From an uncultured Prevotellaceae bacterium (GTDB lineage Bacteria > Bacteroidota > Bacteroidia > Bacteroidales > Bacteroidaceae), in assembly GCA_900318115.1 (NCBI GenBank), contig ONJJ01000021.1:8773-72772 (forward strand): a stretch of 64,000 nt of DNA, read 5' to 3'. Positions 15,927-31,470 of the stretch are shown here, in pieces (within the stretch, counting starts at the first letter, position 1; the number at the start of each line of letters is the position of its first letter). The position numbers and the translations under genes are program-made. The notes under the pieces are model-generated. The model ran no database searches and was not told where the DNA came from. It worked only from the letters and a program-made list of their open reading frames with translations.

Positions 15927-17255
15927 TTACAAGTGCTGCAGCGCTTCGACGGGTCGCTTGCGGCAGGTTCGCCAGGCAGGGACGAGGATGCCGAGGGTGA
16001 CGACAGCGAGGAGGATAAGGTACTGGATGACACAGATGACGAGGTAGTGTATCCAGAAGATTTCCACCCAATTGCGCTCCCGTCCCGTGCCGCTCATGCT
16101 TAGGCCATCGGAGAGGTCCATGTTGATGGCGAACTGGAACCAGATGAGCTGGCCGACGATGCAGGCCAGCAGGGTCAGCAGCGCGGCCTCGCCCCATACC
16201 ATACAGAAGATGTCGCGGCGCTTGGCGCCAAAACTGCGCATGATGCCGATGTCCTCCGTGCGCTTGCGCAGCTGCAGCCAGAAAGTGCCGAGTGTGCCCA
16301 GCACCACGTTCAGCAGGAATAGGGCAAGGAGGATTCCGAGGAGGGTGTTGGTGAGGTTGTAGTCTCTGTTGCCACTCCATGACGACAGCCAATCTTTATA
16401 GGTCTGGAGAGAGTAGAGGAAGTGATTGCCGGCTTGTAGCAGAGAGGCGCTGCTTCGACCGTCGGGAAAACCGACGGGCACACTGACGGTTTGGTAGTGA
16501 TTGATGAAGGCTTCTGCATCGGCTTCGGGCTTCAGTCGAATGAGCATCTGCGGGGTTGCATACTCTTGGATTACAGGAGTCAGAATGGAATAGGCATAGC
16601 GATCATTCTGCTGCAAGCGGAAATCCTCCACGACGCCCGCGATGGTGTAGCGGCTGACGATGACCGGCCCGCCTTGCTCCTGCAGCGCACGGTCGCTGAA
16701 GTCCCATTCCACCATGCGGCGGCCCACTACTTGGTCGGTACCAAAGATGGCCTGTGCCAGGCTGCGGGTGATGACCACGCCGCCCTCCGGACATTCCTCG
16801 GAAAGTACTCTCGCCGAAGGGCTGCCCTCGATAGGCGTCAAACCTTGCGTCTCGAAGTACTGCTCATGCAGCAGGAAACCCTGCATGTAGGCTCCGCAAC
16901 GGCGAGTGGAGTCGGCCTCAGAAGCATAGGAACTGGTATGGTAGGTACCTTGGCCAATGATGTGACTGGTGAAGCCTGCATACTGAACCTCGGGCAGAGC
17001 ACGAATCTGGTCGCGCAGGGCATAGAGGGAAGCCTCACCCACGGAAGACGAATTGGGACTGAAGTCCTTGATTCCCGTCTGCCCCACCAACAAGTGCTCC
17101 TTCTCGAACTCCCCGGCGGGACGACAAAAGTATGTGTCGAAGGTGGTTACGACGAAGTGGTCAATGAAGTAGAAACTGAGGACGGTGATGAGGATAATCT
17201 CAGCAAAGACCCAGCCGTTCTGACGGCGATGGGACCAGAGGTTCTTGAGTATCAT
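15927..17255 (-). CDS. FtsX/MacB-type ABC permease, type-2 paralogue (third pair)
   Basis: FtsX block ..IGIMRSFGAKRRDIFCMVWGEAALLTLL..VPAWRTCRKRPVEALQHL. TM1 is WVFAEIILITVLSFYF. The start is set at ATG 17255, which overlaps the upstream stop as ATGA. The 86 extra codons of track ORF 15927..17513 overlap the preceding gene. Confidence 0.85.
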   Translation of the reverse strand: MILKNLWSHRRQNGWVFAEIILITVLSFYFIDHFVVTTFDTYFCRPAGEFEKEHLLVGQTGIKDFSPNSSSVGEASLYALRDQIRALPEVQYAGFTSHIIGQGTYHTSSYASEADSTRRCGAYMQGFLLHEQYFETQGLTPIEGSPSARVLSEECPEGGVVITRSLAQAIFGTDQVVGRRMVEWDFSDRALQEQGGPVIVSRYTIAGVVEDFRLQQNDRYAYSILTPVIQEYATPQMLIRLKPEADAEAFINHYQTVSVPVGFPDGRSSASLLQAGNHFLYSLQTYKDWLSSWSGNRDYNLTNTLLGILLALFLLNVVLGTLGTFWLQLRKRTEDIGIMRSFGAKRRDIFCMVWGEAALLTLLACIVGQLIWFQFAINMDLSDGLSMSGTGRERNWVEIFWIHYLVICVIQYLILLAVVTLGILVPAWRTCRKRPVEALQHL

Positions 17256-18625
17256 TTCTTCTGGTTTAGCGATTCGACAATAGGTTTGCGTAGTGAGGTC
17301 CATGACGGTATGAGGGCGACCATGAGATTCAGGACGACACAGCAGAGAAAGACGATGAGGAAGAGGGCGGGCGTTACGAACATGTTGAAATCCAATGTGA
17401 TGTCGCCTGTGAGGTTGCCTTCGCGGAGGATGAGCGCCTGGAACATCGCCGTATGGCGGACGGCCAGATAGAACAGCCATGAGAGCACCCATCCTACGAG
17501 GCCGCCGCAGCACGTCAGGACGAGGTTCTCGCGAATGACCTCGCGCAGCAGCTTGCGCCGCTTGGCGCCGAATGCTTTGCGTATGCCCATCTCTGCCCGC
17601 CGCGCTTCCATGCGGTTGCTGATGAGACCGCTGAGGTTCAGGGCTGGCAGCAGCAGAAAGATAAGCATCAGGATGGCGGGCGGCATCAGGTTCTTGGCTT
17701 TGTCGGAAGTGGACTCGTCATCGGAGTGGAAGAAACTGAAGCACACAAAGAAATGTGACTTAACATCTACCGCGAAGTGTACGGGCTCGCCTTCGGCTGA
17801 ACTCTGTGCCGCCTCGTAGCGTCGGCACAGCGGTTCCAACTCCTTCATGAAATCGTTGCGCGAATAGCCATTCTTCAGCAGCAAGCGCACGCTGAGGTTT
17901 CCTTTGTAGCTGGTAGGATTAGCCTCAGTATGGCTTAACTCTTTGCCAAGGTAAGGGGCATAGAACTCGGCATAGGAGGCGTCCATCATGGGGCTGGCAC
18001 TCTTGACGATGCCGATGATGCGGTAGGGGATGGAGTTGATGTAAAGGGTGGGCACGGGGGTGGGCTGTTGGGGATTGGGATGGGTTATCCCAATCTTCTC
18101 CAAGAACTTATCCGTCACCACACACACAGGCTCCCCGTTGCGGAACTCCTGTTCGTTGAAAGGGCGGCCCTCGAGGAACTGGAAGTCATAGAGTTGGAAG
18201 AAACGGGGATCGCAGTACAAGGCACGCAGATTGCTTTCCAGCGGAAGAGGAGCCGACGGAACCGAATCCATCCGGAAGAACTCATAGTTATTTCTAAAAA
18301 GCCCCGTTGCCACCTCCACACTCTCCAGTTTGCTGAACAATTCATCCACGGCGAGGGTGCTGCAGCCCGTGTACATCGGACCGTCCACTTCGTTGTCCTT
18401 GTATTGCAAGGCGGTGACATAAAGTGTGCGGTCGCGGTGCGTCTCCGGGTAGATATTCGCCATCTTGATGTTTAGCATGATGGCTACGACCATGGCGGAC
18501 GCTATTGCCACCGCCGTGCCTGCGATGTAGATGGCAAAGGCAATAAAGTCGGACTCTCCCCCCGCCCTCCCTATAAGGGAGGGAGCAGAATGTATTAGAC
18601 TGGATGTATTCGTATTCGTTTTCAT
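17252..18625 (-). CDS. FtsX/MacB-type ABC permease, type-1 paralogue (third pair), with repeat-encoded N-terminus
   Basis: C-terminal block ..MGIRKAFGAKRRKLLREVIRENLVLT..IPSWTSLRKPIVESLNQKK aligns with the other type-1 modules. The N-terminus MKTNTNTSSLIHSAPSLIGRAGGES is encoded by the palindromic cassette. Confidence 0.85.
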   Translation of the reverse strand: MKTNTNTSSLIHSAPSLIGRAGGESDFIAFAIYIAGTAVAIASAMVVAIMLNIKMANIYPETHRDRTLYVTALQYKDNEVDGPMYTGCSTLAVDELFSKLESVEVATGLFRNNYEFFRMDSVPSAPLPLESNLRALYCDPRFFQLYDFQFLEGRPFNEQEFRNGEPVCVVTDKFLEKIGITHPNPQQPTPVPTLYINSIPYRIIGIVKSASPMMDASYAEFYAPYLGKELSHTEANPTSYKGNLSVRLLLKNGYSRNDFMKELEPLCRRYEAAQSSAEGEPVHFAVDVKSHFFVCFSFFHSDDESTSDKAKNLMPPAILMLIFLLLPALNLSGLISNRMEARRAEMGIRKAFGAKRRKLLREVIRENLVLTCCGGLVGWVLSWLFYLAVRHTAMFQALILREGNLTGDITLDFNMFVTPALFLIVFLCCVVLNLMVALIPSWTSLRKPIVESLNQKK

Positions 18626-18706
18626 TTATGTTTATTGGCATTTAATATGTTTTCAAATCTTGAAGGTAACCACTCCCTCCCTCACAGGGAGGGCGGGGAG
18701 TGGGTC
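18551..18706. repeat. Composite palindromic cassette (two inward-facing ~36-nt GC-rich hairpin units plus 84-nt AT-rich spacer carrying a start codon)
   Basis: Units GGACTCTCCCCCCGCCCTCCCTATAAGGGAGGGAGC (18551-18586) and CACTCCCTCCCTCACAGGGAGGGCGGGGAGTGGGTC (18671-18706). ATG 18625 lies in the spacer. Alignable with 24162-24322. Confidence 0.85.
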
Positions 18707-18744
18707 TGTGGGGGGGGCTGTGGGAGGGGGTCTGTGGGAGGGGG
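18707..18744. repeat. G-run tandem tract (TGTGGG(A)GGGGG(T)C x3) between the cassette and the ATPase stop
   Basis: TGTGGGGGGGGC TGTGGGAGGGGGTC TGTGGGAGGGGGC on the + strand (C-rich on the mRNA). Confidence 0.7.
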
Positions 18745-19506
18745 CTACTGAATCTGCCGTCCATCCAAGAACTTGATAATCCTGTCCGTCTGTTCGGCTT
18801 GCTTCTCGTTGTGCGTCACCATGACTATGGTGCGGCCGTCCTCTTTATTCAGCTTATGCAGTAGCTCCATAATCTCGGCGCCCATCTTCGAGTCGAGGTT
18901 ACCTGTGGGCTCGTCGGCGAGGAGGATTTCGGGGTTACCGATGATGGCGCGGGCGATGGCTACGCGCTGACACTGACCACCAGAGAGTTGCGTTGGGCGG
19001 TGCTTCATGCGGTGCGAGAGGCCTACGCGGGCAATGACTTCCTTGGCCAGCCGCGTGCGCTCGCTGCGGCCTACGCCCCGATAGATAAGGGGCAGCATCA
19101 CGTTGTCCAGTACGTTCAGCGTCGGGATGAGGTGGAAGCTCTGGAAGACGAAGCCCAGCGTCTTGTTGCGGATCTCCGCCAGACGGTTGTCGCTCATCTT
19201 CGGGTCGATGCGCTGTCCGCACAGCTCTATCTCGCCGCTGGTGGGTTCGTCTAAGAGTCCCATGATGTTCAGCAGCGTCGACTTGCCGCAGCCCGAAGGT
19301 CCCATGATGCTGAGGAACTCGCCCCTCTTCACTTCGAGGTTCACATTTTCGAGGGCTTGTGTCTCTACTTCGTCGGTACGGTAGATCTTGTTGATGCCGG
19401 TAAGGCGGATAACAGCCTCACCCCCAACCCCTCTCCGAAAAGAGAGGGGAGTGGTTACATCTTGACTCGGTTGATTCTGGTCGTTAAAAATCTTTTCAGT
19501 GTTCAT
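18745..19506 (-). CDS. ABC transporter ATP-binding protein (MacB/LolD-like NBD)
   Basis: Walker A GPSGCGKST, signature LSGGQCQRVAIARA, Walker B ILLADEPTGNLD. The 31-residue N-terminal extension contains the repeat-encoded TTPLSFRRGVGGEA. Confidence 0.9.
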   Translation of the reverse strand: MNTEKIFNDQNQPSQDVTTPLSFRRGVGGEAVIRLTGINKIYRTDEVETQALENVNLEVKRGEFLSIMGPSGCGKSTLLNIMGLLDEPTSGEIELCGQRIDPKMSDNRLAEIRNKTLGFVFQSFHLIPTLNVLDNVMLPLIYRGVGRSERTRLAKEVIARVGLSHRMKHRPTQLSGGQCQRVAIARAIIGNPEILLADEPTGNLDSKMGAEIMELLHKLNKEDGRTIVMVTHNEKQAEQTDRIIKFLDGRQIQ

Positions 19507-19639
19507 AATTTCCTTTTATTTAGTTAATAATTCTATTCTTGAAACTAATAACTCCCCTCATAACTCCCCTCTCCTTTCGGAGAGGGGTCGGGGGTGAGGC
19601 CACTCCCCTCTCCTTTCGGAGAGGGGCGGGGGGAGAGTC
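19415..19639. repeat. Composite palindromic cassette, variant B (one unit in the ATPase 5' coding region, two tandem units upstream, AT-rich spacer with start codon)
   Basis: GCCTCACCCCCAACCCCTCTCCGAAAAGAGAGGGGAGTGG (19415-19454). ACTCCCCTCTCCTTTCGGAGAGGGGTCGGGGGTGAGGC (19563-19600). CACTCCCCTCTCCTTTCGGAGAGGGGCGGGGGGAGAGTC (19601-19639). ATG 19506 lies in the spacer. Confidence 0.85.
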
Positions 19640-19641
19640 TT

Positions 19642-22203
19642 CTACTCTTCCTTTATTGCCTCCACTATATTACTCCTGCTAATCCTCCACGCCGGTATGG
19701 CCGTAGCCACGAGCACGGTCCCTAATATAATAAGGTACACGCACGCGGAGACGACGAGGAAGTGGGTGCCGAAGCTGTCGAACCAGAAGTGGACGGCGGG
19801 ATTATGAGTGCCGTAGTCGTCGCCGAGGCCACGCGCAGCGGCAAACTGGAAGTAGATGATGCAGCCGATGACGACGCTGACGGTGGTGAGCAGCCACGCC
19901 TCGCGCAGGAAGCCGAGGAAGACGCTCCACTTCGTAGCGCCGAAGGCACGACGGATGCCGGCCTCCTCGCGACGCTGCCGCGTGTACATAAGCAGGGTGC
20001 CGAAGACGCCGAAAGCCAGGTTCGAAGCAAAGAAGGCGGCAATGAGTGAGTTTCGACGGACGCGTCGGTCTGGCCCCGTTCGTCGGTCTCTTTCTGCCGT
20101 GGCTTCCCTACTCGACTGCATACGGCGCACGAAGCAATGCTCCATTGTCAGGTCTGTCTCCATCTGCCGCTGATGACTCTGGATGAACTGCTCTGCATCC
20201 ACGCCCTCGCGCAGCCGCAGGATGATGGGTGCGTTCGGGAGATAGCCGTTGTCACATTCAAAGATACAGGAGAAGTCGCGGTCGTAACTGCTGTAGCGCA
20301 TATCTTCAACCACGGCACGGATTCGGTATTCCGTTTCTATCCATTCTACATTTCCTGTCTCTTCCTTGTAACCAAACTTCGTTCCTCCTATCTTCCTGCC
20401 TGCCACGTCGATAGTGCCGAAAAGCCCCATGGCGGCGGAACGTGTGATGATGACGGTCTCACCATCCACGCAGTCGTGGGTGAGTTCGCTGTTGGGTACG
20501 CTGGGCGTCAGCGATTGGAAACCATAGACTTCAAACATCCGGGAGTCGGGACTGAATTGCCAGTTCCAACCCGTGATGGTGTCGCCGTCGACGAAATAGC
20601 TGCGACCTGGCACCACCACGCCAAAGCCCATCGGAGTGCAGTGTGCCGTATAGGCCATCTCCACGCCATCCATCTCCTGCGCCTTCTGCAGCAGCACCTC
20701 CGCCTCCTGCATGGATTTGTACAAGTCTTTATGCTGCTCTTGTCGCGTCACGGAACGCGCTACTTCCAAATTCACAAGGCGGTCGGGGTCGTAGCCAAGG
20801 GGAAGGTGCGTGACGTAGGAGGTGATGAGTACGGGGTCTAAGGTCCACCAGAGGACGAAGGTGACGAGGATGAGTTCTGCAGCTATCCATATCTTCGAGC
20901 GCCATCCCCCACCCTCGCCCTGCTCTTCATTCATCATGCCTTCCACAATCGGCTTACGAAGGCTGAGCCACGCAGGCAAAGTTGCTGCCAATACATTCAA
21001 CGTACAGCAGATAACGAGGGCAATGAGGAAGATGGCAGGGACAAGGAACATCTCGCCGCGAAGAATAGGCACAACGGGCGACAGGCCGTAGATTCCAGAG
21101 AATATGTAGAACACCCAGTCGCGCCAGGCGTAGAGCGCCAGCCAGGCGAGACACAGCCCCAGGAGCCCGCCGATAAGCGTCAGCGTCAGGTTCTCACGTA
21201 TGACCTGCCAGAGCAGCGTGCGCCGCTTGGCACCAAAGGCTTTGCGCACCGCCATTTCCGGCAGCCGGCGTTGCATACGTGCTGCCACCATTCCGCTGAG
21301 GTTCAGCGCAGGCACCAGCAACAGGAGCAGGATGGCAGGAGCAACGTACCACGTCAGGTTAGAACCCCACGCACTGAACACCGTGCCGAGGTCTTGCCAG
21401 ACGGCGGCGTAATGCGATTTGAGTTCGGCATTCATATCCACAGGTCTGTCGCCATGCACGGCGTTGTAGCGCGATTCCACTTCCTTCAGTTCTTGCATGA
21501 AAGCATCGCGTTGACCGTACGGAACCACAAAGCTTACCTTTAACGGAATCTCGTGGAAATCAGCAGCCCAGTCTTCTACAATGCCTTCGGCTGTATAAGG
21601 GATCCACACATCCGCCACACATTCTTCTGTCAGCACGCTCGGTGTCTGTACTACGCCGATGAGGCGGTAGGGACGGTGGTTGATGATGATGGTTTGACCC
21701 ACGGCTACATTTGCACCCTTCGCCACCTCCTCCGTCACCACGACCACAGGCCGATGGGCATCGAAGTCATCCTGCGTGAACGGAGCGCCTTGAAGGAAAC
21801 GAAACTGGAAGAAACGGAAGAAGCCCGGTTCCGTCAGCTTTACGTTCACTTGGCGGTCGTGCAGGCCATCGGCCAACTTCATATAGAACTCATCGGCGCC
21901 CCAAAAATTCATCCAAGCGGTAATGCACGTAGGCGTCTGCATCGTCTGAAACAAGTCGTGGAACACATCTGGCCGTATGACTTCCACCTTATCGGATTCG
22001 TTCTTCCTGCCCATGTATTCCATATAGTAAGTCTTGCTCCTATTCACCTCCGGCGCGATGTCCGCCACCTTCACATAATAGATCTCGGTGATGAGCATCG
22101 TGAAAGCGATGGCGAGGGCGGTGCCGAGGATGTAGATAGTGGAAAATAGTTTCTCCTCGCGCATCCTGGCCAAGGCCTGACGAATATACATAAACACTTT
22201 CAT
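19642..22203 (-). CDS. Fused double FtsX/MacB-type permease (type-1 half plus type-2 half, 853 aa)
   Basis: The N-half MKVFMYIRQALARMREEKLFS... to ..LPAWLSLRKPIVEGMMNEEQ matches the whole of 24328..25689. The C-half ..IWIAAELILVTFVLWWTLDP.. to ..AIPAWRISRSNIVEAIKEE matches 22893..24230. Confidence 0.9.
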   Translation of the reverse strand: MKVFMYIRQALARMREEKLFSTIYILGTALAIAFTMLITEIYYVKVADIAPEVNRSKTYYMEYMGRKNESDKVEVIRPDVFHDLFQTMQTPTCITAWMNFWGADEFYMKLADGLHDRQVNVKLTEPGFFRFFQFRFLQGAPFTQDDFDAHRPVVVVTEEVAKGANVAVGQTIIINHRPYRLIGVVQTPSVLTEECVADVWIPYTAEGIVEDWAADFHEIPLKVSFVVPYGQRDAFMQELKEVESRYNAVHGDRPVDMNAELKSHYAAVWQDLGTVFSAWGSNLTWYVAPAILLLLLVPALNLSGMVAARMQRRLPEMAVRKAFGAKRRTLLWQVIRENLTLTLIGGLLGLCLAWLALYAWRDWVFYIFSGIYGLSPVVPILRGEMFLVPAIFLIALVICCTLNVLAATLPAWLSLRKPIVEGMMNEEQGEGGGWRSKIWIAAELILVTFVLWWTLDPVLITSYVTHLPLGYDPDRLVNLEVARSVTRQEQHKDLYKSMQEAEVLLQKAQEMDGVEMAYTAHCTPMGFGVVVPGRSYFVDGDTITGWNWQFSPDSRMFEVYGFQSLTPSVPNSELTHDCVDGETVIITRSAAMGLFGTIDVAGRKIGGTKFGYKEETGNVEWIETEYRIRAVVEDMRYSSYDRDFSCIFECDNGYLPNAPIILRLREGVDAEQFIQSHQRQMETDLTMEHCFVRRMQSSREATAERDRRTGPDRRVRRNSLIAAFFASNLAFGVFGTLLMYTRQRREEAGIRRAFGATKWSVFLGFLREAWLLTTVSVVIGCIIYFQFAAARGLGDDYGTHNPAVHFWFDSFGTHFLVVSACVYLIILGTVLVATAIPAWRISRSNIVEAIKEE

Positions 22204-22245: not shown

Positions 22246-22262
22246 TTGCAATTTCCGTGCCA
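22246..22262 (-). promoter_or_regulatory. Sigma-54 promoter (TGGCACGGAAATTGCA) upstream of the fused permease / ATPase / third permease pair
   Basis: Minus-strand TGGCAC-N5-TTGCA, -12 element about 45 nt upstream of ATG 22203. Confidence 0.8.
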
Positions 22263-22304
22263 GACTTGTAACTCATTGATTCTGAGCGATGCCTTAAAAG
22301 CGAC

Positions 22305-22343
22305 TGTCCATTTCTGGACACACGATGTGTTCGGAAATGGACA
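22305..22343. promoter_or_regulatory. Paired enhancer (UAS) dyads for the NtrC-type activator
   Basis: TGTCCATTTCTGGACA (22305-22320) and TGTTCGGAAATGGACA (22328-22343). The same pair recurs at the other two sigma-54 promoters. Confidence 0.7.
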
Positions 22344-22420
22344 GATGAAGAAATGAGGAACGTCTGCAGGGAACCTGAAATGATTGACCCTGCTGAGGCC
22401 TGTGGGCGGGCAGAAGAAGA

Positions 22421-22892: not shown

Positions 22893-24230
22893 TCACTCCT
22901 CCCTCAGCGCATTGGTGATACGTGTCCTTGTGATGCGCCATGCTGGTATGGCGGTTCCGATGAGGACGGTGACTAATATAATAAGGTACACGACGGCGGA
23001 GACGATGAGGAAGTGGGACCAGAAGTGGTCGGGCCAGGTCATATCGGTGGCGAGGTCGTAGAACATGGGCATGTAGAGCGTTTCAAAGGCCGTGACGCCG
23101 TCCTCGGTGGTGGTGATGCCGCTGTAGGCATAGTTCAGGTAGATGATGACTCCGATGAGTACGGCGGCAGTGGCGAGGGCTTCGTTCCGCAACAGCATCT
23201 CGCAGAACAGACGGCGGCGGGTGGCACCAAAGGCTCGGCGTACACCACACTCTTCTGTGCGACGCTTGGCGTGGAGCCAGACGGTGCCGATGACGGCGAG
23301 GACGAGATTCAGCAGGAAGAAGAGGGCGAGGGCCAGACTGCGGTTCACCTCCTGTGTGCGGCCGTCGTCCAATTCCTGCTGCTGCAGACGGTCATCGTAG
23401 GTCATGAGCGTGCTGATGCGAGCGAAGTTAGTCTTGCCGCTACGGATGAGGTCTCGGCCGTGATCCTCCACAAAACGGCGGGCGTCAACGCCCTCGCGCA
23501 GACGAAGAACAAAGAGGCATTGGGTGGTTTGCAGGGTTCCGGGTTTGAGGATAATCGAGCGCTGGTTGAAGGGCAGCGCCTTGCGGAAATCCTCCACCAC
23601 GCCGGCCACCGTCACCTCGTAAGCCGGCTGATAGCATAACGTGAAGCGGCGGCCCACCACGTCGGCGGTGCCGAAGAGGGCAATGGCACCAGAGCGCGTG
23701 AGCACCACCTTCGGTTCCTGCCATGGGATGCGTGAGAGTTCTTCGGCAGAGGGGCTGCCAGGCAGAGGATGCAGGCCGTAGGTCTCGAAGAAGCGGGAGT
23801 CGGGAATGAACAGGACATGTGCCAGCAGGATGGTGTCGCCCTCATTGCAACATTGAAGATAGCCGGAGCTGGTCGAGCCGATGGAGGAGTAGCGGTCGTC
23901 GTAGAGGTACGCTGTCTCCACGCCTTCTACTTCCGTCAGCTGGCGCGTCAGCTGCTGGCGGCGTTTCTCGGTCATCTTATAGGGGTCTGTCAGGTCGCCA
24001 TCCTCATCGGTTTCCCATTCACCATCCACGGTACATTCTCCGTAGAGCAGGCGGCTGGTGTCATAACCTAATGGCAGGTTGCGGTAATAGAGATTGACAA
24101 CGGCAGGGTCGAAGACCACCCAGGCAACGACGGTGATGATGACGAGCTCGAGGAAAAGGACGGACTCTCCCCCCGCCCTCCCTGTTAGGGAGGGAGCGGA
24201 ATGTATTTGACTGGCTGTATTCATTTTCAT
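22893..24230 (-). CDS. FtsX/MacB-type ABC permease, type-2 paralogue (first pair), with repeat-encoded N-terminus
   Basis: FtsX block ..CGVRRAFGATRRRLFCEMLL..AIPAWRITRTRITNALREE. The first 23 codons MKMNTASQIHSAPSLTGRAGGES lie in the palindromic cassette. Confidence 0.85.
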   Translation of the reverse strand: MKMNTASQIHSAPSLTGRAGGESVLFLELVIITVVAWVVFDPAVVNLYYRNLPLGYDTSRLLYGECTVDGEWETDEDGDLTDPYKMTEKRRQQLTRQLTEVEGVETAYLYDDRYSSIGSTSSGYLQCCNEGDTILLAHVLFIPDSRFFETYGLHPLPGSPSAEELSRIPWQEPKVVLTRSGAIALFGTADVVGRRFTLCYQPAYEVTVAGVVEDFRKALPFNQRSIILKPGTLQTTQCLFVLRLREGVDARRFVEDHGRDLIRSGKTNFARISTLMTYDDRLQQQELDDGRTQEVNRSLALALFFLLNLVLAVIGTVWLHAKRRTEECGVRRAFGATRRRLFCEMLLRNEALATAAVLIGVIIYLNYAYSGITTTEDGVTAFETLYMPMFYDLATDMTWPDHFWSHFLIVSAVVYLIILVTVLIGTAIPAWRITRTRITNALREE

Positions 24231-24322
24231 TTATGTTTTATTGTTCATTTAATCTTTTTAAGTGTTTACCATCCTTGAAGGTATTTGCTCCCTCCCTAAC
24301 AGGGAGGGCGGGGGGAGAGTCC
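24162..24322. repeat. Composite palindromic cassette (two inward-facing units plus 89-nt AT-rich spacer carrying a start codon)
   Basis: GGACTCTCCCCCCGCCCTCCCTGTTAGGGAGGGAGC (24162-24197) and GCTCCCTCCCTAACAGGGAGGGCGGGGGGAGAGTCC (24287-24322). ATG 24230 lies in the spacer. Confidence 0.9.
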
Positions 24323-24327
24323 GTTTT

Positions 24328-25689
24328 TTATTGCTTTTCCATCATTGATTCTACAATAGGTTTGCGCAAACTCCACCACGCAGGCACTACGGCGGCGAGC
24401 AGGTTGAGGAGGAGGATGGCAGCGAAAGCACAGAGGAAGAGTGTGGGAGCAAAGAGCATCTCACCTTCCACGATGGGTGCTGTGGTGAGCGTGCTTCTGT
24501 CGAAGAACATGCCAAATATCTCCGTGCGCAACCCGTAGATGGCGAGCCACGATAGAGCGAGACCGATGGCACCGCCGATACTAGTCAGCAGCAGGTTCTC
24601 CCATACTACTTGATTTAAAAGTGTGCTGCGACGTGCACCGAAAGTCTTGCGAACCGCCATCTCCGCCGACCGCCGTTCCATGCGTCCCGCGACAATGCTG
24701 CAGAGGTTCAGTGCAGGAACAAAGAGCAACACGAAAAGGATGCCCGCGTAGTGCTTGAAGAGCTGCCAACCCGTGACGACGCCGAAGACGCCGTCGCGAT
24801 TCTCGGTGCGCAGCACGTGCATCGGGTGCGTTTCCAAGCCCTTGGTGAGCACCATCGTCATCTTCACGCCTTCGCCGAAGCTGAAGTTGCGAGTGGGCAT
24901 CAAATCTGGCTGAGACAGCTGGAGGCGCACGACCAGGTCATCCAGTTCCTGCTTCAGCGCCTGAAGGTGCTCACTGTCTTTCACGGTGGCGATGACGGCG
25001 AACAGGCCGGAATAGGGTGAACCTACATAGAAATCCACAAGCGTGTAGGGGATGATAATGTCGGCATAGCTGTCGGGGGTGAGCTGGCTCCCACTGCGCA
25101 CCACGCCCACCACGCGTGTCTCGGGGTTGTTCTCGATGGTTATCATGCGTCCCAAGGCGTTCTCACCCTTACCGAACAGCCGCTCGGCCAGCGCATCGGT
25201 GATGACACAGACGGCCTCCTTTGCCTCCACCTCCTGTGCTGTGAAAGGCCGACCGCTCACGAAGTCGTACTCGTAGATCTTGAAGAAGTCGGCATTGGTC
25301 CAGTTCTTGACGACGTTGATGTACTCGTCATGACCACGCACCACACAGGCGTGACTGCGGCTATCCATCTTGCCCGTTCCTGCGGCGAGTAGCGTGGGTG
25401 CGCAGTACTCGATATGAGGACTCGGAAGGAACCACTCCTCAAACGCCTTTGGGCTAAAACCCGTGTTGCCCTGTCCACCATTCTCGGCCTGAATGTTAAT
25501 ACCCTCGAAGTACACCGTCCGCGAACGGTTCACTTCGGGGTAGATGGGAGCGAGCTTGATGTAATAGACCACCGCCATCACCATCGTGAAGGCAAGGGCC
25601 ATGGCGGTACCTGCGATGTAGATACCGGAGAAGAGCTTCTCCTCGCGCATCATGGCCAGGGCCTGGCGAATGTACATAAATACTTTCAT
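24328..25689 (-). CDS. FtsX/MacB-type ABC permease, type-1 paralogue (first pair)
   Basis: Start set at ATG 25689 (MKVFMYIRQALAMMREEKLFS), matching the start of 19642..22203. The track start 25755 would run through the sigma-54 promoter. FtsX block ..MAVRKTFGARRSTLLNQVVWENLLLT..VPAWWSLRKPIVESMMEKQ. Confidence 0.85.
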   Translation of the reverse strand: MKVFMYIRQALAMMREEKLFSGIYIAGTAMALAFTMVMAVVYYIKLAPIYPEVNRSRTVYFEGINIQAENGGQGNTGFSPKAFEEWFLPSPHIEYCAPTLLAAGTGKMDSRSHACVVRGHDEYINVVKNWTNADFFKIYEYDFVSGRPFTAQEVEAKEAVCVITDALAERLFGKGENALGRMITIENNPETRVVGVVRSGSQLTPDSYADIIIPYTLVDFYVGSPYSGLFAVIATVKDSEHLQALKQELDDLVVRLQLSQPDLMPTRNFSFGEGVKMTMVLTKGLETHPMHVLRTENRDGVFGVVTGWQLFKHYAGILFVLLFVPALNLCSIVAGRMERRSAEMAVRKTFGARRSTLLNQVVWENLLLTSIGGAIGLALSWLAIYGLRTEIFGMFFDRSTLTTAPIVEGEMLFAPTLFLCAFAAILLLNLLAAVVPAWWSLRKPIVESMMEKQ

Positions 25690-25731: not shown

Positions 25732-25748
25732 TTGCAATTTCCGTGCCA
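25732..25748 (-). promoter_or_regulatory. Sigma-54 promoter (TGGCACGGAAATTGCA) upstream of the first permease pair
   Basis: Identical 16-mer to the one at 22246-22262, about 45 nt upstream of ATG 25689. Confidence 0.8.
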
Positions 25749-25791
25749 AACGCATAACTCATTGATTCTGAGCAATAGCATAAAAAACAAT

Positions 25792-25830
25792 TGTCCATTT
25801 CTGGACAATCGGAGTGTTCGGAAATGGACA
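25792..25830. promoter_or_regulatory. Paired enhancer (UAS) dyads
   Basis: TGTCCATTTCTGGACA (25792-25807) and TGTTCGGAAATGGACA (25815-25830), ending 1 nt before the kinase stop codon. Confidence 0.7.
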
Positions 25831-25831
25831 A

Positions 25832-27118
25832 TCAAGGCTTAGCGGCTGGGAAGAGGATGGTGAAACGGGTGAGGTGGTCGGTGGGGTCGGTCTGAAGGGT
25901 AAAGGTACATCCGTGTGCGGTGAGGATATCGCGGATGAGCAGGAGGCCGAGGCCCTGACCTTGGGGCTTGGTGGAGAAGAAGGGTGTGAAGAGGTGCCGT
26001 GCTGCTTCGGTGGAGATGCCACGACCGTTGTCGGTGATGGTAAGGGAAGACTCTCCCCCCGCCCTCCCTGTTAGGGAGGGAGCATAATGATTTGAAGGCA
26101 GTAACTTCTGAATAGCGACGGTAATTACTCCCTCCCTCATAGGGAGGGCGGGGGGAGAGTCCTTTATACTCTCCACGCTATTCTTAACAATATTCACCAG
26201 CACTTGCTGAAAGAGGACGGGGTCGAGGTGGACGGGGATGGCATCGTCAGTCAGGTGGAAGTCGAGACGGACGTTGGCAGCAAGGCAGAGGTTCTCGAGG
26301 AAGGGTCGACAGCCCTCGACTTCCTCGCTGAGGTCGCAGAGCTGCAGCTGCGGCGCTGGAATCTTGACGACTTCGGCGAAGCGTGTGACGAAGGAGGCCA
26401 TGGCCAAGAGCCGTTCGCGTAAAGCGGTATTGTCCAATGCGCCAACGATTCCCGCCACGCTGTTGTTGACCTCATGGGCTATCATTCGGATGACGCGCTC
26501 GTAGGCTGCTTTCTCTGCCAATCTGACCTCGGAGGTGAGGGACTCGATGAGGTAGAAAGGATGCTGATAGCCGCGGTCGGGGAACGAGAGGTGGCTGATG
26601 CGAAAGATACCAGGTTCGGCAGTCAGACGCACGGTAGTCTCGCTGCCGAGGGGCAGACGTTGCATGGCCTCGGAGATGACGGGCTTCATCATGCTGCGTG
26701 CGGCAGGATTCATGGAGGTGATGTTGCCATCGAGGTCGCATTGCACAACGCCCATGGGCGAAGCTTCGATGAGCAGGCTGAGGAAGGTGTATTGCTCTTC
26801 GAGGCTGAGGTGTTCGGTACGCAGCCGGGCAAGCAAGTCGTTGAAGGTGTGGACGATGATGTCTGTCTCGTGTTGTCCTGACGGGGCGAGGCGTGTGGTG
26901 AGGTCGAGGTCACGCACGAGTTCCATTCCGCTGATGAGGGTGTCGTAGGGCTGAAGCGTACGGCGATAGAAATATATAAGATAGATGAGTAGCAGGACGA
27001 TGAAGCACTCCGTCGTGTAGAATAGCCAAGAGTGACTCTGGAAGGTGGCGAACAGAGCCACACCCGCGAGCAGAAGAATGGCAACCACAAGAATCAGAAA
27101 AGAATACTTCAGTTTCAT
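25832..27118 (-). CDS. Sensor histidine kinase (2 TM, PAS-like, HisKA, HATPase_c) partner of the sigma-54 activator
   Basis: TM helices in MKLKYSFLILVVAILLLAGVALF.. and ..CFIVLLLIYLIYFY. H-box RMIAHEVNNS, N-box VLVNIVKNSVESI, G-boxes TDNGRGIS and GQGLGL. The ATG overlaps the upstream stop (ATGA at 27115-27118). Confidence 0.85.
   Translation of the reverse strand: MKLKYSFLILVVAILLLAGVALFATFQSHSWLFYTTECFIVLLLIYLIYFYRRTLQPYDTLISGMELVRDLDLTTRLAPSGQHETDIIVHTFNDLLARLRTEHLSLEEQYTFLSLLIEASPMGVVQCDLDGNITSMNPAARSMMKPVISEAMQRLPLGSETTVRLTAEPGIFRISHLSFPDRGYQHPFYLIESLTSEVRLAEKAAYERVIRMIAHEVNNSVAGIVGALDNTALRERLLAMASFVTRFAEVVKIPAPQLQLCDLSEEVEGCRPFLENLCLAANVRLDFHLTDDAIPVHLDPVLFQQVLVNIVKNSVESIKDSPPALPMREGVITVAIQKLLPSNHYAPSLTGRAGGESSLTITDNGRGISTEAARHLFTPFFSTKPQGQGLGLLLIRDILTAHGCTFTLQTDPTDHLTRFTILFPAAKP
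26049..26161. repeat. Inward-facing pair of palindromic units inside the histidine-kinase HATPase domain, read through in frame
   Basis: GACTCTCCCCCCGCCCTCCCTGTTAGGGAGGGAGC (26049-26083) and ACTCCCTCCCTCATAGGGAGGGCGGGGGGAGAGTC (26127-26161). 21-nt perfect terminal inverted repeat. Confidence 0.9.
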
Positions 27119-28500
27119 AGGCCGTGCTTCTCGATTTTGCGATAGAGGGCACCTCGGCTGATTCCGAGTTCCTTGGCCACGAGGGAGAGGTTTCCGGCGT
27201 GCTTCTGGATGGAGGCGGCGATGGCGGCGCGCTCGAGTTCTTCAAGGGTGGGAGATGGACCCGTCGGGGAAACCGACGGGCACACTGACTCATGGGAAGA
27301 GGGGGACAGGGACTGGCGAAAGTCGGCAGCGGTGAGTTCCTCTCCTTCTGCCATCAGCACGGTTCGCTCCACCAGGTTCTTCAGTTCGCGAATGTTGCCG
27401 GGGAGAGGGAGGGATTGGAGGAAGGAGATGGCATCCGCGGTGATGGCAATGTCGGTGGAGAGCGTGGACTGATGCAGGAAGAAATCCACAAGGATGGGGA
27501 TGTCCTCGCGGCGCTGGCGCAGGGGCGGCAGGTGGAGACTGATGAGGTTGATGCGGTAGAAGAGGTCTTCGCGGAAGGTGTGTTCCTCCACCATGGAGGG
27601 GAGATCCGCATTGGTGGCGCAGATGACACGGACATCGGTGCGGCGTGTGTGGCTGTCGCCCAGTACCTCGTAGGTCTGATCCTGAAGCACTCGGAGCAGC
27701 TTCACCTGGCTGGCAAGGTCGAGTTCTCCGATTTCGTCGAGGAAGATGGTGCCTCCCCTGGCGAGTTCGAATCGCCCTACCCTATCCTCTTTTGCATCGG
27801 TGAAGGCTCCTTTCTTATGGCCAAACATCTCGCTCTCGAACAACGACTGGGAAATACCTCCGAGGTTCACCTTCACGAAAGGTCCTTCGGCACGACGGCT
27901 CTGCCGGTGAATGGCCTCGGCAATAAGCTCCTTGCCCGTACCGCTCTCGCCCGTGATGAGGACGGGTGCATTGGTGGGAGCGATGCGGGCGATGGTGGAA
28001 TATACGGAGGCGAGGGAGGGGAGGAAGGCCCCTCTCCCCGCTCCCCCCGTGGGGGGGAGAGCTCTGGCAAAAGTTGATTCTTCACAAAGTTTTCGAGCGG
28101 AGCGAGGCTCTCCCCCTTTACGGGGGAGCGGGGAGAGGGTCCTCGCCGTTTCAATCCGATCCATGAGCACGCCGTTGTCCCACGGCTTGGTGATGAAGTC
28201 AAAGGCGCCGGCACGCATTCCCTGCACGGCAAGGTCTATGGTGCCCCAGGCTGTCATGAGGATGCAGGGAAGGTCTGGACGGAAGACCTTAACCTGCTTG
28301 AGCAGGGTGAGGCCTTCGTCGCCGGTAGTGGAATTGTCGTAGTTCATATCCATCAGAACCAATTCCACTTCCGGATGGCTTCGCACGACAGTGATGGCCT
28401 CCTTGGGGTTCTCGGCCAGTGCCACCGTGTAGTCGTTACGCTCCAGGACAAGTTTCAGCGTGAAACGGATGGTCTTATCGTCATCTACAACTAATATCAT
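27115..28500 (-). CDS. Sigma-54-dependent response regulator (receiver + AAA+ + Fis-type HTH), NtrC family
   Basis: Receiver MILVVDDDKTIRFTL..LVLMDMNY... Walker A GESGTGKE. Sigma-54 contact loop GAFTDA (GAFTGA variant). C-terminal HTH LVAKELGISRGALYRKIEKHGL. Confidence 0.9.
   Translation of the reverse strand: MILVVDDDKTIRFTLKLVLERNDYTVALAENPKEAITVVRSHPEVELVLMDMNYDNSTTGDEGLTLLKQVKVFRPDLPCILMTAWGTIDLAVQGMRAGAFDFITKPWDNGVLMDRIETARTLSPLPRKGGEPRSARKLCEESTFARALPPTGGAGRGAFLPSLASVYSTIARIAPTNAPVLITGESGTGKELIAEAIHRQSRRAEGPFVKVNLGGISQSLFESEMFGHKKGAFTDAKEDRVGRFELARGGTIFLDEIGELDLASQVKLLRVLQDQTYEVLGDSHTRRTDVRVICATNADLPSMVEEHTFREDLFYRINLISLHLPPLRQRREDIPILVDFFLHQSTLSTDIAITADAISFLQSLPLPGNIRELKNLVERTVLMAEGEELTAADFRQSLSPSSHESVCPSVSPTGPSPTLEELERAAIAASIQKHAGNLSLVAKELGISRGALYRKIEKHGL
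28027..28142. repeat. Inward-facing pair of palindromic units (variant C) inside the response-regulator linker, read through in frame
   Basis: GGCCCCTCTCCCCGCTCCCCCCGTGGGGGGGAGAGC (28027-28062) and GGCTCTCCCCCTTTACGGGGGAGCGGGGAGAGGGTCC (28105-28142). The outer 21 nt are inverted repeats (20/21). Confidence 0.85.
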
Positions 28501-28644: not shown

Positions 28645-29916
28645 TTAGTTCCTCACTCTTAACTTTTCCTTTCCTTTGTACTTGGCCATATCGCTGACCA
28701 CGAGTTCCTCTCCCTCGGAGAGTCCGCTGATGACTTCGATGTAGTCGTAGTTGCATTCTCCAAGCTGCACCTCACGCGGTACGAGGGTGCGGTCGTCCTT
28801 AAATATAAATAAGGTGTACTTGCCCGGTCCAGCGTAGAACGATCCGTTGCGAATGCGGAGGACATCGTCGCGGATGCTGGTGATGACGTACACCTCGGTC
28901 TTCAGGCCAGAGCGCAGGCGCGGGTGGCTGGGATTCTGCGGCTGGACGGTGAAGGTGATGGCTCCGCCCTGACTGAGCGGAGTGACGGTGGCGATGGTGG
29001 CCGGCAGCCGTTCCTTGCCGATGCGCAGCAGGGCTTCGCCGCCTACGAGGACCCGGTCGCTGTAGGTGTCCGATATCTCGCACTCCGCCTTGAAGTGGCT
29101 GAGGTCGCTGACGATGGCTAACTTCTGCCCTGCCCCTACGGTGGCACCAATTTCCGTGGTGATATAGGTCAGCGTGGCCCGGCGTGGCGAACAGATGGCA
29201 GCATCGGCCAGGGTACGTTGTTTCTCGGTCAGTCCCTTCTCGAAGATGCCGTTTTGCAATTGTTGCATCCTCAGGTCGGCCTGCTTCACCCGCACCTCGT
29301 TGGCATACTGCTGGCGCAGTTGTGCCAGTTGTAGTTGGGCGGTGCGCAAGGTGGTCTCGGCACTGCGCACCCGGTCACGCGTGCCGGAGCCGAGGCTGTC
29401 GAGGTAAAGCTCGTTGCGCAGCTGTGCTTCCAATTGCGAGAGTTTCATCTCTTCCACCTCTATTTGCATGCGTCGGTCTGCAAGTTGTGTCTCGATATTT
29501 GCCCGCAGCTGCTCCATCTGCTGACGCCGTATCTCACGTTCGTCCATGGCCTTGGCCAGCTCTGTCTCGGTCGATTGCAGGTCCAGCCTCAGTAGCGGCG
29601 TACCAACGTCCACGCTGTCGCCACTGTGGGCATAGACTTCCAGGATGCGGGAACTGATGGGTGACGTGATAACCTCCTCGAAGGCGGGCACGATGCGCCC
29701 CGTGGCCGTGACACTCACCTCGATGGTGCCACGATCCACCTCTGACACGACCAGCGTCTTGCGATCGATGGTCGTCAGCATCTGAGAACCGAGCCAGGCG
29801 CCAGCGGCCATCACCAGGAGGAAGCCGACGAGCCACCTCCCGACGCGAATCATTTTTCTCTTACGTTGGACATTGAGGGGAATCTGTCTATCCATTGTTT
29901 GATTATCTGCTTTCAT
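28645..29916 (-). CDS. HlyD/MacA-family periplasmic adaptor (membrane fusion protein)
   Basis: N-terminal TM anchor RWLVGFLLVMAAGAWL. Lipoyl-like ..TATGRIVPAFEEVITSPISSRILEVYAHSGDSVDVGTPLLRLD... Long coiled-coil segment. C-terminal barrel ..EVISGLSEGEELVVSD... Confidence 0.85.
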   Translation of the reverse strand: MKADNQTMDRQIPLNVQRKRKMIRVGRWLVGFLLVMAAGAWLGSQMLTTIDRKTLVVSEVDRGTIEVSVTATGRIVPAFEEVITSPISSRILEVYAHSGDSVDVGTPLLRLDLQSTETELAKAMDEREIRRQQMEQLRANIETQLADRRMQIEVEEMKLSQLEAQLRNELYLDSLGSGTRDRVRSAETTLRTAQLQLAQLRQQYANEVRVKQADLRMQQLQNGIFEKGLTEKQRTLADAAICSPRRATLTYITTEIGATVGAGQKLAIVSDLSHFKAECEISDTYSDRVLVGGEALLRIGKERLPATIATVTPLSQGGAITFTVQPQNPSHPRLRSGLKTEVYVITSIRDDVLRIRNGSFYAGPGKYTLFIFKDDRTLVPREVQLGECNYDYIEVISGLSEGEELVVSDMAKYKGKEKLRVRN

Positions 29917-31454: not shown

Positions 31455-31470
31455 GGCAAAAAGGGTGCCA
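31455..31470 (-). promoter_or_regulatory. Sigma-54 promoter (TGGCACCCTTTTTGCC) upstream of the TolC gene
   Basis: Minus-strand TGGCAC-N5-TTGC. The -12 element is only about 16 nt from ATG 31440. Confidence 0.7.

Follow-up and report, generated by a model that had tools for sequence, protein, structure and literature searches.

A hairpin-bounded cassette at the start of an ABC permease gene is probably a relic of a DUF559 nuclease element from rumen and hindgut Bacteroidaceae

The minus strand of a 64,000-nt stretch of DNA from an uncultured Prevotellaceae bacterium (assembly GCA_900318115.1, contig ONJJ01000021.1, positions 8,773 to 72,772; hereafter the window) carries a gene for an FtsX/MacB-type ABC transporter permease whose start lies in a 155-nt cassette at positions 18552-18706. 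This cassette is probably what remains of a selfish element of small size, known here from Bacteroidaceae of the rumen and hindgut, in which a gene for a DUF559 nuclease is enclosed between two hairpin-forming ends. The copy in the window appears to consist of the ends alone, without the nuclease open reading frame (ORF), and it provides the permease with its start codon and a short leader.

Structurally, the cassette comprises two inverted 34-nt G/C hairpin units that lie 87 nt apart on either side of an AT-rich spacer (Table 1). The outer limits of the pair of arms coincide with the coordinates of the original prediction, which was made from the window alone. Each arm forms a hairpin of its own, CCCTCCCT-nnn-AGGGAGGG, with a perfect stem of 8-10 bp, a loop of 3 nt, and a G-rich outer flank, GGCGGGGGGAGAGTC. 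The corresponding pattern, CCCTCCCTNNNAGGGAGGG, is matched six times in the window and not once in 100 shuffles. The predicted RNA fold of the cassette has a free energy of −72.8 kcal/mol (z = −6.5 relative to shuffled sequences), in which the two units pair with each other and leave the ATG in the 87-nt loop. The hairpin arms are runs of pure pyrimidines or pure purines, and consequently no stop codon is possible outside the loop in any frame on either strand. It is because of these stop-free arms that the units survive inside ORFs. A scan of the cassette against Rfam 15 returned only sub-threshold microRNA hairpin models (24-44 bits, compared with gathering thresholds of 72-230) and no intron match.

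The spacer supplies the ATG of the permease gene at position 18625. An in-frame TAA directly precedes this codon and the next methionine codon lies inside the first transmembrane helix (TM1). A complete first helix and a complete protein therefore require initiation at the cassette ATG. A conserved cytoplasmic motif that precedes TM1 (..RHAFALIREDKLFS..) is absent from the window permease, where the leader stands in its place, and TM1 itself is intact. The domains PF12704 and PF02687 are present in the exact permease protein and in all 120 homologues, which establishes membership in the FtsX/MacB-type permeases. In addition, the exact 457-residue protein is encoded on at least 23 independent metagenome contigs and is therefore not an assembly artefact. 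The ORF translations agree with the original prediction that this gene has an odd start, with a leader shared by the type-2 permease that begins at 24230: the window permease begins MKTNTNTSSLIHSAPSLIGRAGGESDFIAFAIYIAGTA, while the other two type-1 modules begin MKVFMYIRQALA(R/M)MREEKLFS.IYI.GTA. The upstream neighbour is, as had also been claimed, an ABC ATPase gene (18745-19506) and not a type-1 permease gene.

Orthologous junctions exist in empty, intermediate, and filled states (the DNA loci fetched for comparison carry labels beginning with L, and permease homologue proteins carry labels beginning with P). The ATPase-permease junction of L002 is empty. There, the ATPase stop codon is followed by 34 AT-rich nucleotides and then by ATGATCTCTAAATTTCTTTTGTCTTTACGGCACGCT, and the protein starts MISKFLLSLRHALALIREDKLFS. 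In L003, the cassette is joined at ..GAGTCCGTC / CGTCACGCC (GGESV/RHAF) and the N-terminal motif is intact. The junction of L004 is filled by a copy with a variant arm. Compared to cassette-bearing orthologues, the window junction lacks a further ~30 nt (~10 codons, RHAFALIREDK). An empty orthologous junction with a canonical start means that the cassette replaced the 5′ end of the permease gene. Judging from these alleles, it evidently took the place of the 34-nt spacer and the first nine permease codons, and the window allele evidently lost RHAFALIREDK in addition. The ancestral start would then have had the form MISKFLLSL/MNKILLF..RHAFALIREDKLFS, with the MISKFLLSLRHA.. start as the probable ancestral state and the cassette start as the derived one. 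An ancestral MKVFMYIRQ start, like that of the paralogue, had been anticipated; a canonical start without the cassette does exist, but its sequence is not that of the paralogue.

Close orthologues (74-92% identity) among the 120 homologues fall into several N-terminal classes. One carries no element (MISKFLLSLRHALALIREDKLFS, MNKILLFMRHAF.. or MTKILLFLRHAF..; P0016, P0019, and P0021-P0031). A second combines the element with an intact motif (MKKNTSSLIHSAPSLIGRAGGESVRHAFALIREDKLFS; P0012, P0013, and P0033), and in a third the junction holds different variants of the stem (PSLIGRVRGGS.., PSPLGGSRWGA.., and PSLTGRGWGWV..; P0001-P0007, P0010, P0015, P0017, P0018, P0020, and P0032). The window type, GGES-DFIAFA-IYIAGT, is shared with P0008 and P0009, which have the same cassette at the junction at 81% protein identity. 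Most homologues at ~50% identity have the canonical start. In a neighbour-joining tree of the permease bodies, calculated without support values, the N-terminal classes are intermixed, a pattern that points to a 5′ end undergoing turnover or recombination independently of the body of the gene. The central claim of the original prediction, namely that a cassette not tied to the gene duplication rewrote the 5′ end of a gene, is thus upheld by the empty L002 junction, the intermediate L003 junction, the scattered N-terminal classes, and the dispersal over unrelated loci described below.

A similar replacement is seen at the second cassette of the window. In L002, the stop codon of the type-1 permease gene overlaps the start of the type-2 gene (ATGA) and the type-2 protein begins MNMKLNILNANGWLFIELV. 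The window has the leader instead of those 13 residues. The two window cassettes are 79% identical, whereas the flanking type-1 paralogues share 33% amino-acid identity. Copies at orthologous positions in L004 are 94% (18552-18706) and 100% (24163-24321, corresponding to L004 2646-2804) identical to those of the window. Their presence in a related assembly indicates that the event is old and did not occur recently in this genome. The window cassette is best explained as a relic, old and fixed, and the transporter gene that holds it is otherwise ordinary.

The same architecture recurs in a dispersed family. A scan with the exact hairpin 21-mer AGGGAGGGCGGGGGGAGAGTC, using one genome per species, found more than 117 stretches that contain it, distributed over many contigs in numerous Bacteroidaceae/Prevotellaceae metagenome-assembled genomes (MAGs) from goat, sheep, deer, cattle, and horse. 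This places the family in MAGs of rumen and hindgut Bacteroidaceae. Among the matches listed, unit pairs no more than 250 nt apart are oriented (−,+) in 57 cases, (+,−) in one, (+,+) in two, and (−,−) in three, and the predominance of the first arrangement indicates that the doublet is a unit. The inner flanks of the hairpins, here called the A and B tails, are conserved across doublets, and the stem variants include CCCTCCCT, CCCCTCTCC, CTCCCCCC, and others. Doublets without an ORF are 100-229 nt long with a sharp mode at 113 nt. When the 51 copies away from locus ends are considered, a long ORF reads through 23 (mostly copies of 111-119 nt), some of which could be spurious antisense frames, and a gene start codon lies inside another 21 (copies of 117-220 nt); the remaining seven belong to neither class. 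The downstream hairpin in doublet-started genes is translated (V/H)(T/S)APSL(T/I)GRAGGES. These genes are unrelated; by our reading of the N termini, their products include ValRS, TrpRS, IspD, and PurC, together with lipoproteins and proteins resembling RimO and TolC.

Doublets also occur in a second length class, at ~485 nt, which carries an ORF of ~121 codons (MDYRTASPDRYALLKDFARENRRN..IVDFV..VIEVDGGYHAE..). Among the matches listed, this ORF is intact in five loci (L030, L054, L068, L102, and L111) and degraded in two (L094 and L041). It corresponds to the Pfam family DUF559 (E = 4.6e-33), and it also matches the DUF559 structure in PDB entry 3HRL (4e-16) and the catalytic domain of I-Bth0305I, annotated as a 'mobile intron protein', in entry 3R3P (1.8e-3). 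The D..E-x-D-G..H motif is conserved, and the product is a predicted Vsr-like PD-(D/E)xK nuclease. VSR, DUF559, and the homing endonuclease I-Bth0305I have been grouped together previously (PMC3424549). The element begins with a hairpin and the A tail CGGTCACCTTTCAAGAATTGTCAAC, continues with the ORF from its ATG to ..TTTAAATGA, and ends with the B tail ATGAATACAxCCAGTCAAATACATTCTG and an inverted second hairpin. The stop codon of the nuclease gene overlaps the ATG of the B tail.

As a guard against circularity, the association was also examined in reverse by choosing 80 metagenome loci on DUF559 protein similarity alone (59-92% identity). A hairpin lies 16-76 nt upstream of the ORF in ~70 of these loci and 17-72 nt downstream in ~62, and all 55 downstream regions that were aligned contain the hairpin and its G-rich flank. 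The alignment reveals indels in the loop and little stem diversity, and nuclease clades tend to accompany particular stem types. Among 67 distinct loci with sufficient flanking sequence, a host ORF of at least 100 codons begins between −19 and +90 nt from the nuclease stop codon in 61. The host start overlaps or abuts this stop codon in 42 of the 61, with offsets of −3 (ATGA; 17 loci), −7 (14), −10 (five), −13 (two), and 0 (four), and the host genes read through the downstream hairpin. At least three of the six exceptions (L159, L192/L196, and L193) also have the host gene downstream, with a GTG or GTGA start. In the exception loci examined, only 0-8 nt separate the first hairpin from the preceding stop codon, which is that of the upstream gene. 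The hosts represent 25 families. With 10 loci, the MacB-type ABC ATPase that also occurs in the window forms the largest of them. The others appear, on our reading, to include Fmt, LeuC, a PaaK-like protein, MnmA, CysN, a HAD protein, a sirtuin, MFS transporters, SufD, and Fcl.

When the window cassettes are aligned with ORF-bearing elements, both ends match, over ~52 nt at the left end and ~70 nt at the right, with the ORF absent. The right-end alignment includes AAATGAA..CCAGTC.AATACATTCTG, and the counterpart of the window B tail, at the 3′ end of DUF559 elements, is the restart codon that overlaps the stop together with its leader. The window cassette therefore represents the ORF-less state of this element type, in which the B tail provides the leader MKTNTNTSSLIHS and the hairpin is translated as APSLIGRAGGES. 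The 23 nt of AT-rich filler between the tails, whose own homology is weak, would be the former site of the ORF, and its end (..AAA TGA) is presumably the old nuclease stop codon overlapping the ATG. An analogous ORF-less state is seen when L128, which has the ORF, is compared with L055, which has an ORF-less doublet of 145 nt. These are one locus, with flanks that are ~95% identical, and they differ in the ORF.

We propose that the element, which sits between co-directional genes right after the stop codon of the upstream gene, replaces the first codons of the downstream gene, whose translation could then begin at the element ATG and continue through the downstream hairpin. Ribosomes that end at the nuclease stop codon might re-initiate at the overlapping ATG by translational coupling and produce an N-terminally extended host protein. 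The nuclease may act on hairpin ends or on ORF-less alleles and thereby spread or maintain the element in a homing-like or hairpin-directed manner. In the lineage of the window, the element or an ORF-less copy would have taken over the 34-nt spacer and nine codons, leaving the 155-nt cassette and a leader of 25 residues. After loss of the ORF, the AT-rich spacer between strong hairpins could serve as a stand-alone initiation region, with its ATG in the predicted 87-nt loop. The leader is presumably translated in vivo, in which case it would give peptides such as MKTNTNTSSLIHSAPSLIGR.

Several observations weigh against this interpretation. A tblastn search found no DUF559 ORF or remnant in the 64-kb window, and the parent of this copy is consequently deduced from family resemblance. 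The pairing of doublet and nuclease is established for the listed loci and not genome by genome, and the comparison sequences are MAGs or metagenome contigs throughout. The cassettes have replaced 9-13 codons, which is not simple insertion. Moreover, a target-site duplication and a conserved target were sought beside ~60 copies and neither was found; the flanks of these copies only prolong the inverted repeat, with 7-8 extra complementary bases in a few. Finally, five doublets enclose the 5′ untranslated region (UTR) and signal peptide of a host gene (Table 1), with both inner tails of the A type and the downstream hairpin just past the predicted cleavage site. These do not fit one insertion at a start codon. 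Composite or decayed elements were also observed, in which hairpin pairs enclose short-repeat arrays and nested or degenerate hairpins without a DUF559 ORF (Table 1). Composite arrays aside, DUF559 was the only gene found between distant hairpin pairs in the fetched loci, where neither a transposase nor a RAYT (the transposase associated with repetitive extragenic palindromic (REP) sequences) was present.

A fairly unlikely alternative is that the doublets are switches selected by the host, either as invertons of the 5′ region or as mRNA structures that control translation, and that the link to DUF559 is secondary. One observation that speaks for such a role comes from a glycosyltransferase gene represented in two MAGs (L032 2445-2599 and L071 2565-2719), where the 155-nt doublet spacer occurs in opposite orientations. 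Alignment of the two loci places the flanks on opposite strands and the element, at 93.6% identity, on the same strand; relative to the gene, the spacer is therefore inverted. Either orientation keeps the reading frame, and the two encode different inserts of 29 residues (..REG AVTFKDCKANTFSEHSFKNCKADTFSGHS APSL.. and ..REG AECSEKVSALQSLKECSEKASALQSLKVT APSL..). This flip may be programmed, or it may reflect occasional recombination between the 34-nt inverted repeats. The predicted RNA, with both units paired and the ATG in the 87-nt loop, and the presence of five doublets in one sigma54-regulated transporter locus likewise suit a regulatory function. DUF559 proteins are enriched among predicted targets of programmed inversion (PMC9881135), and intragenic invertons are known in Bacteroides (PMC10028968). 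However, this is the only flipped case in about seven orthologous comparisons, the ~6 other doublet pairs being collinear, and its two orientations occur between genomes and not within a population. Flipped ORF-bearing copies were sought in the six exceptions described above and in L146 and L191, and there are none among the 67 loci. For inversion by a recombinase, the 45-nt spacers are very short. No recombinase turned up, though no search was aimed at recombinases. Furthermore, the presence of copies in at least 25 unrelated housekeeping genes argues against a dedicated regulatory role. Sequences also vary rapidly at a fixed site.

It is also unlikely that the doublets are classical MITEs (miniature inverted-repeat transposable elements) that are moved in trans by a DDE transposase, with DUF559 as a mere passenger. 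The family does consist of short, dispersed, multi-copy elements (113-220 nt) bounded by terminal inverted repeats, with a length mode of 113 nt and presence/absence polymorphism. Against this stand the lack of a target-site duplication at any of ~60 copies and of any transposase-bearing element with these ends in the fetched loci. The only ORF between such ends is DUF559 (five intact copies in the genome loci), and DUF559 genes picked by similarity are nearly always flanked by the hairpins, which is not expected of an occasional passenger. The tendency of nuclease clades to match stem types also counts against this explanation.

We consider it very unlikely that the doublets are REPIN-like, that is, inverted REP pairs replicated by a RAYT (HUH Y1) transposase. 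REPINs are reportedly inverted REP doublets, according to Bertels and Rainey. The resemblance to the REPINs of PMC3733652 lies in a replicating unit formed by two imperfect palindromes in inverted orientation, in the variable spacer between them, and in the lack of a target-site duplication. By the criteria given there a GTAG or CGTC tag would be expected at the palindrome end, where the present family has none. There is likewise no Y1 transposase between or beside copies, the enclosed ORF encoding the PD-(D/E)xK protein DUF559 instead, and the copies lie mostly in or at the start of coding sequence (44 of 51) and are not extragenic. That the leader is an old, vertically inherited permease feature or a by-product of tandem duplication is scarcely credible, for although the same leader is found in orthologues down to ~74-81% identity and the L004 copy is 94% identical, this reading is already contradicted by empty orthologous junctions with a canonical N terminus, by mostly canonical homologues at ~50% identity, by cassettes that also head the non-homologous type-2 permease and occur within dozens of unrelated genes or where these begin, and by the far greater identity of the cassettes (79%) than of their flanking paralogues (33%); the ancient, protein-level leader without flanking hairpins that the original prediction had named as its refutation is thus not what is found.

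The preferred interpretation, a relic of a DUF559 nuclease element, leads to a broader and more tentative suggestion. Hairpin-bounded DUF559 cassettes may possibly form an undescribed class of mobile or selfish elements, in which the nuclease recognizes the hairpin ends, the element colonizes junctions of co-directional genes and offsets the harm of its insertion by donating a start codon that overlaps the nuclease stop and a stop-free hairpin as the new N terminus of the host protein, and its ORF-less relics remain as in-frame parts of proteins that can flip and recode genes. The literature searched (on MITEs, REPIN/RAYT systems, DUF559, EDxHD, and Vsr-like nucleases with inverted repeats) contains no description of the element. 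If this suggestion is true, part of the large DUF559 family would acquire a concrete role as a selfish nuclease cassette. Translational restart combined with stop-free hairpin ends would be a third route to harmless residence in essential operons, besides introns and inteins. It would also account for the hundreds of unusual N-terminal extensions (..APSLTGRAGGES.., ..TPLPHREGxGGGS..) and inserts in frame that Prevotella-like proteins from the rumen contain. Such hairpin-derived extensions affect the calling of gene starts in MAG annotation. The suggestion would also point to a source of rapid variation of 5′ ends and loops in MacB-type transporter loci, in the two-component system of the cluster, and in numerous housekeeping genes. 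What makes the finding of interest is the element family that is revealed, rather than the window relic itself.

The cassette belongs to a sigma54-regulated MacB-type transporter cluster on the minus strand of the window (Table 1). The doublet architecture occurs there in five copies, all within 18.5-28.2 kb of the window and always with the outer flank directed outward.

Table 1. Positions of cassette parts, neighbouring genes, and other hairpin doublets. Coordinates are those of the window unless a comparison locus is named.
Feature	Position	Strand	Description
Upstream hairpin unit HP-L	18673..18706	-	Gene-sense GACCCACTCCCCGCCCTCCCTGTGAGGGAGGGAG; ATPase-permease intergenic; inverted-repeat arm with the stem/loop pattern
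A tail TGGTTACCTTCAAGATTTGAAAAC	18649..18672	-	Homologous, by alignment, to the 5′ inner end of DUF559-bearing elements (CGGTCACCTTTCAAGAATTGTCAAC, then nuclease ATG)
AT-rich filler ATATTAAATGCCAATAAACATAA	18626..18648	-	Site of the 363-nt DUF559 ORF in intact elements
B tail	18586..18625	-	ATG at 18623-18625 and leader MKTNTNTSSLIHS
Downstream hairpin unit HP-R CTCCCTCCCTTATAGGGAGGGCGGGGGGAGAGTC	18552..18585	-	In-frame translation APSLIGRAGGES
Junction to permease body	18533..18551	-	..S DFIAFA / IYIAGT; comparison of window, L002, L003, L004, and homologue N termini
C-rich degenerate tandem CCCCCTCCCACAGA, ~3 copies	18707..18744	-	Between ATPase stop and HP-L
FtsX/MacB_PCD ABC permease, 457 aa	17252..18625	-	PF12704 + PF02687; first 25 residues cassette-encoded
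Further type-2 permease	window end 15927	-	442 aa in matching contig L001; 4-nt overlap with the 17252-18625 gene
MacB-type ABC ATPase	18745-19506	-	Upstream neighbour of permease 17252-18625; own start inside another hairpin doublet
Hairpin trio, second stem type CCCCTCTCC/GGAGAGGGG	19414-19640	-	Encloses ATPase start; downstream unit translated TPLSFRRGVGGEA
Fused type-1/type-2 permease gene	19642-22203	-	853-aa ORF
Type-2 permease	22893-24230	-	Begins MKMNTASQIHSAPSLTGRAGGES
Second cassette copy, 159 nt	24163-24321	-	From type-1 permease stop to type-2 start (ATG 24230)
Type-1 permease	24328-25689	-	
Histidine kinase	25832-27118	-	
ORF-less doublet, 113 nt	26049-26161	-	In frame inside histidine-kinase ORF: DSPPALPMREG VITVAIQKLLPSNHY APSLTGRAGGES
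Sigma54 response regulator	27115-28500	-	
Doublet, third stem type CTCCCCCC/GGGGGGAG	28026-28143	-	In frame in regulator ORF; linker between receiver and AAA+ domains
HlyD-like gene	28645-29916	-	
TolC-like gene	29932-31440	-	
Doublet with host 5′ UTR and signal peptide	L092 611-794		
Doublet with host 5′ UTR and signal peptide	L097 772-989		
Doublet with host 5′ UTR and signal peptide	L012 6223-6385		
Doublet with host 5′ UTR and signal peptide	L047 914-1133		
Doublet with host 5′ UTR and signal peptide	L088 3156-3302		
Composite array	L040 2681-3164		
Composite array	L042 5803-6144		
Composite array	L062 5401-5738		
Composite array	L076 4103-4587		
Composite array	L085 2697-3160		

The kinase gene of L002 has an insert (~3370-3470) at the same site as the window doublet at 26049-26161, between the N-box helix and the DxGxG strand, and the flanks are ~95% identical. 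This insert, whose spacer is unrelated to that in the window, is a doublet with another type of stem (CCCCCGAGGGG / GTCCCCCTCGGGGGAC), and we rejected the possibility that it is a decayed copy of the same element. The occurrence of unlike doublets within such similar flanks indicates that doublets turn over faster than their surroundings. The doublet in the regulator linker (LSPLPRKGGEPRSARKLCEESTFARALPPTGGAGRGAF) is nearly unchanged between the window (28026-28143) and L002 (1348-1439) and looks like an old, fixed in-frame insertion, as far as these two sequences indicate. The degenerate tandem next to HP-L might consist of slipped copies of the hairpin outer flank. A similar extra DSPPAQ copy is present in L032.

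The type-1 and type-2 permease genes are arranged in three ways: with an ATGA overlap (L002 5150-5230), with the cassette between them (24163-24321), and fused into the 853-codon ORF (19642-22203). Sigma54-type promoters (TGGCAC-N5-TTGC) are found on the minus strand at 22247-22262, 25733-25748, and 31456-31470, with a perfect TGGCACGGAAATTGCA before both canonical type-1 permease genes and TGGCACCCTTTTTGC before the TolC-like gene. Each permease promoter is preceded by a conserved palindrome, TGTCCATTTC..GAAATGGACA (22304-22344 and 25790-25832), which is probably the binding site of the NtrC-type regulator of the cluster. Elsewhere in the window, a repeat finder detected a tandem repeat with a 24-nt unit, TCAGGAACCACCGCCACCCCGCAG, in ~5 copies (38781-38900).

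Among known systems, Rickettsia palindromic elements are short, multi-copy, lineage-restricted palindromic repeats that persist in frame in tolerant parts of proteins. To our knowledge, they have no nuclease gene, do not donate start codons, and lack pure pyrimidine and purine arms. The family described here shares their in-frame persistence and differs in the start codon that lies in 21 of 51 ORF-less copies and in its ORF-bearing parent. Correia elements of Neisseria are MITEs and, like the present family, are bounded by terminal inverted repeats, measure ~100-160 nt, are found where genes begin or end, undergo co-transcription, and modify 5′ regions. They produce TA duplications, probably derive from a DDE insertion sequence (IS), and supply promoters or processing sites rather than an in-frame start and leader. 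Remodelling of 5′ ends is common to both families, whereas no duplication was seen in the present one, which donates a start and leader.

The 34-nt inverted ends, small size, and many copies are MITE-like, but the target-site duplication and the transposase-bearing parent IS are missing from the fetched loci, and the doublets are therefore not classical MITEs. With REPIN/RAYT systems they share an inverted palindrome doublet, the lack of a target-site duplication, and a dedicated enzyme gene. Here, however, the enzyme is a DUF559 protein encoded inside the doublet instead of an HUH Y1 transposase. In the absence of a GTAG/CGTC tag and a Y1 transposase, and with copies that are intragenic or at gene starts rather than extragenic, they are not REPINs. 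The intragenic invertons of Bacteroides (PMC10028968) likewise have inverted repeats inside ORFs and are in frame in both orientations, as is the case for L032/L071. The present family differs in that its two states were found in different genomes only, most copies have one orientation, and no invertase is implicated.

There are further parallels with Vsr-like EDxHD homing endonucleases such as I-Bth0305I and free-standing homing endonuclease genes. These have in common with the present elements a small nuclease ORF with a homologous domain (3R3P, 1.8e-3), alleles with and without the ORF at one site (L128/L055), and lodging beside conserved genes with little harm to the host. The elements described here lie outside any intron or intein (with no Rfam intron match), are bounded by inverted hairpins, and occupy at least 25 host genes rather than one homing site. 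Given the lack of an intron or intein and the many target sites, they are not classical homing endonuclease genes. Instead of splicing, harm to the host would be avoided by a restart codon that overlaps the nuclease stop codon and by a hairpin that is translated in frame.

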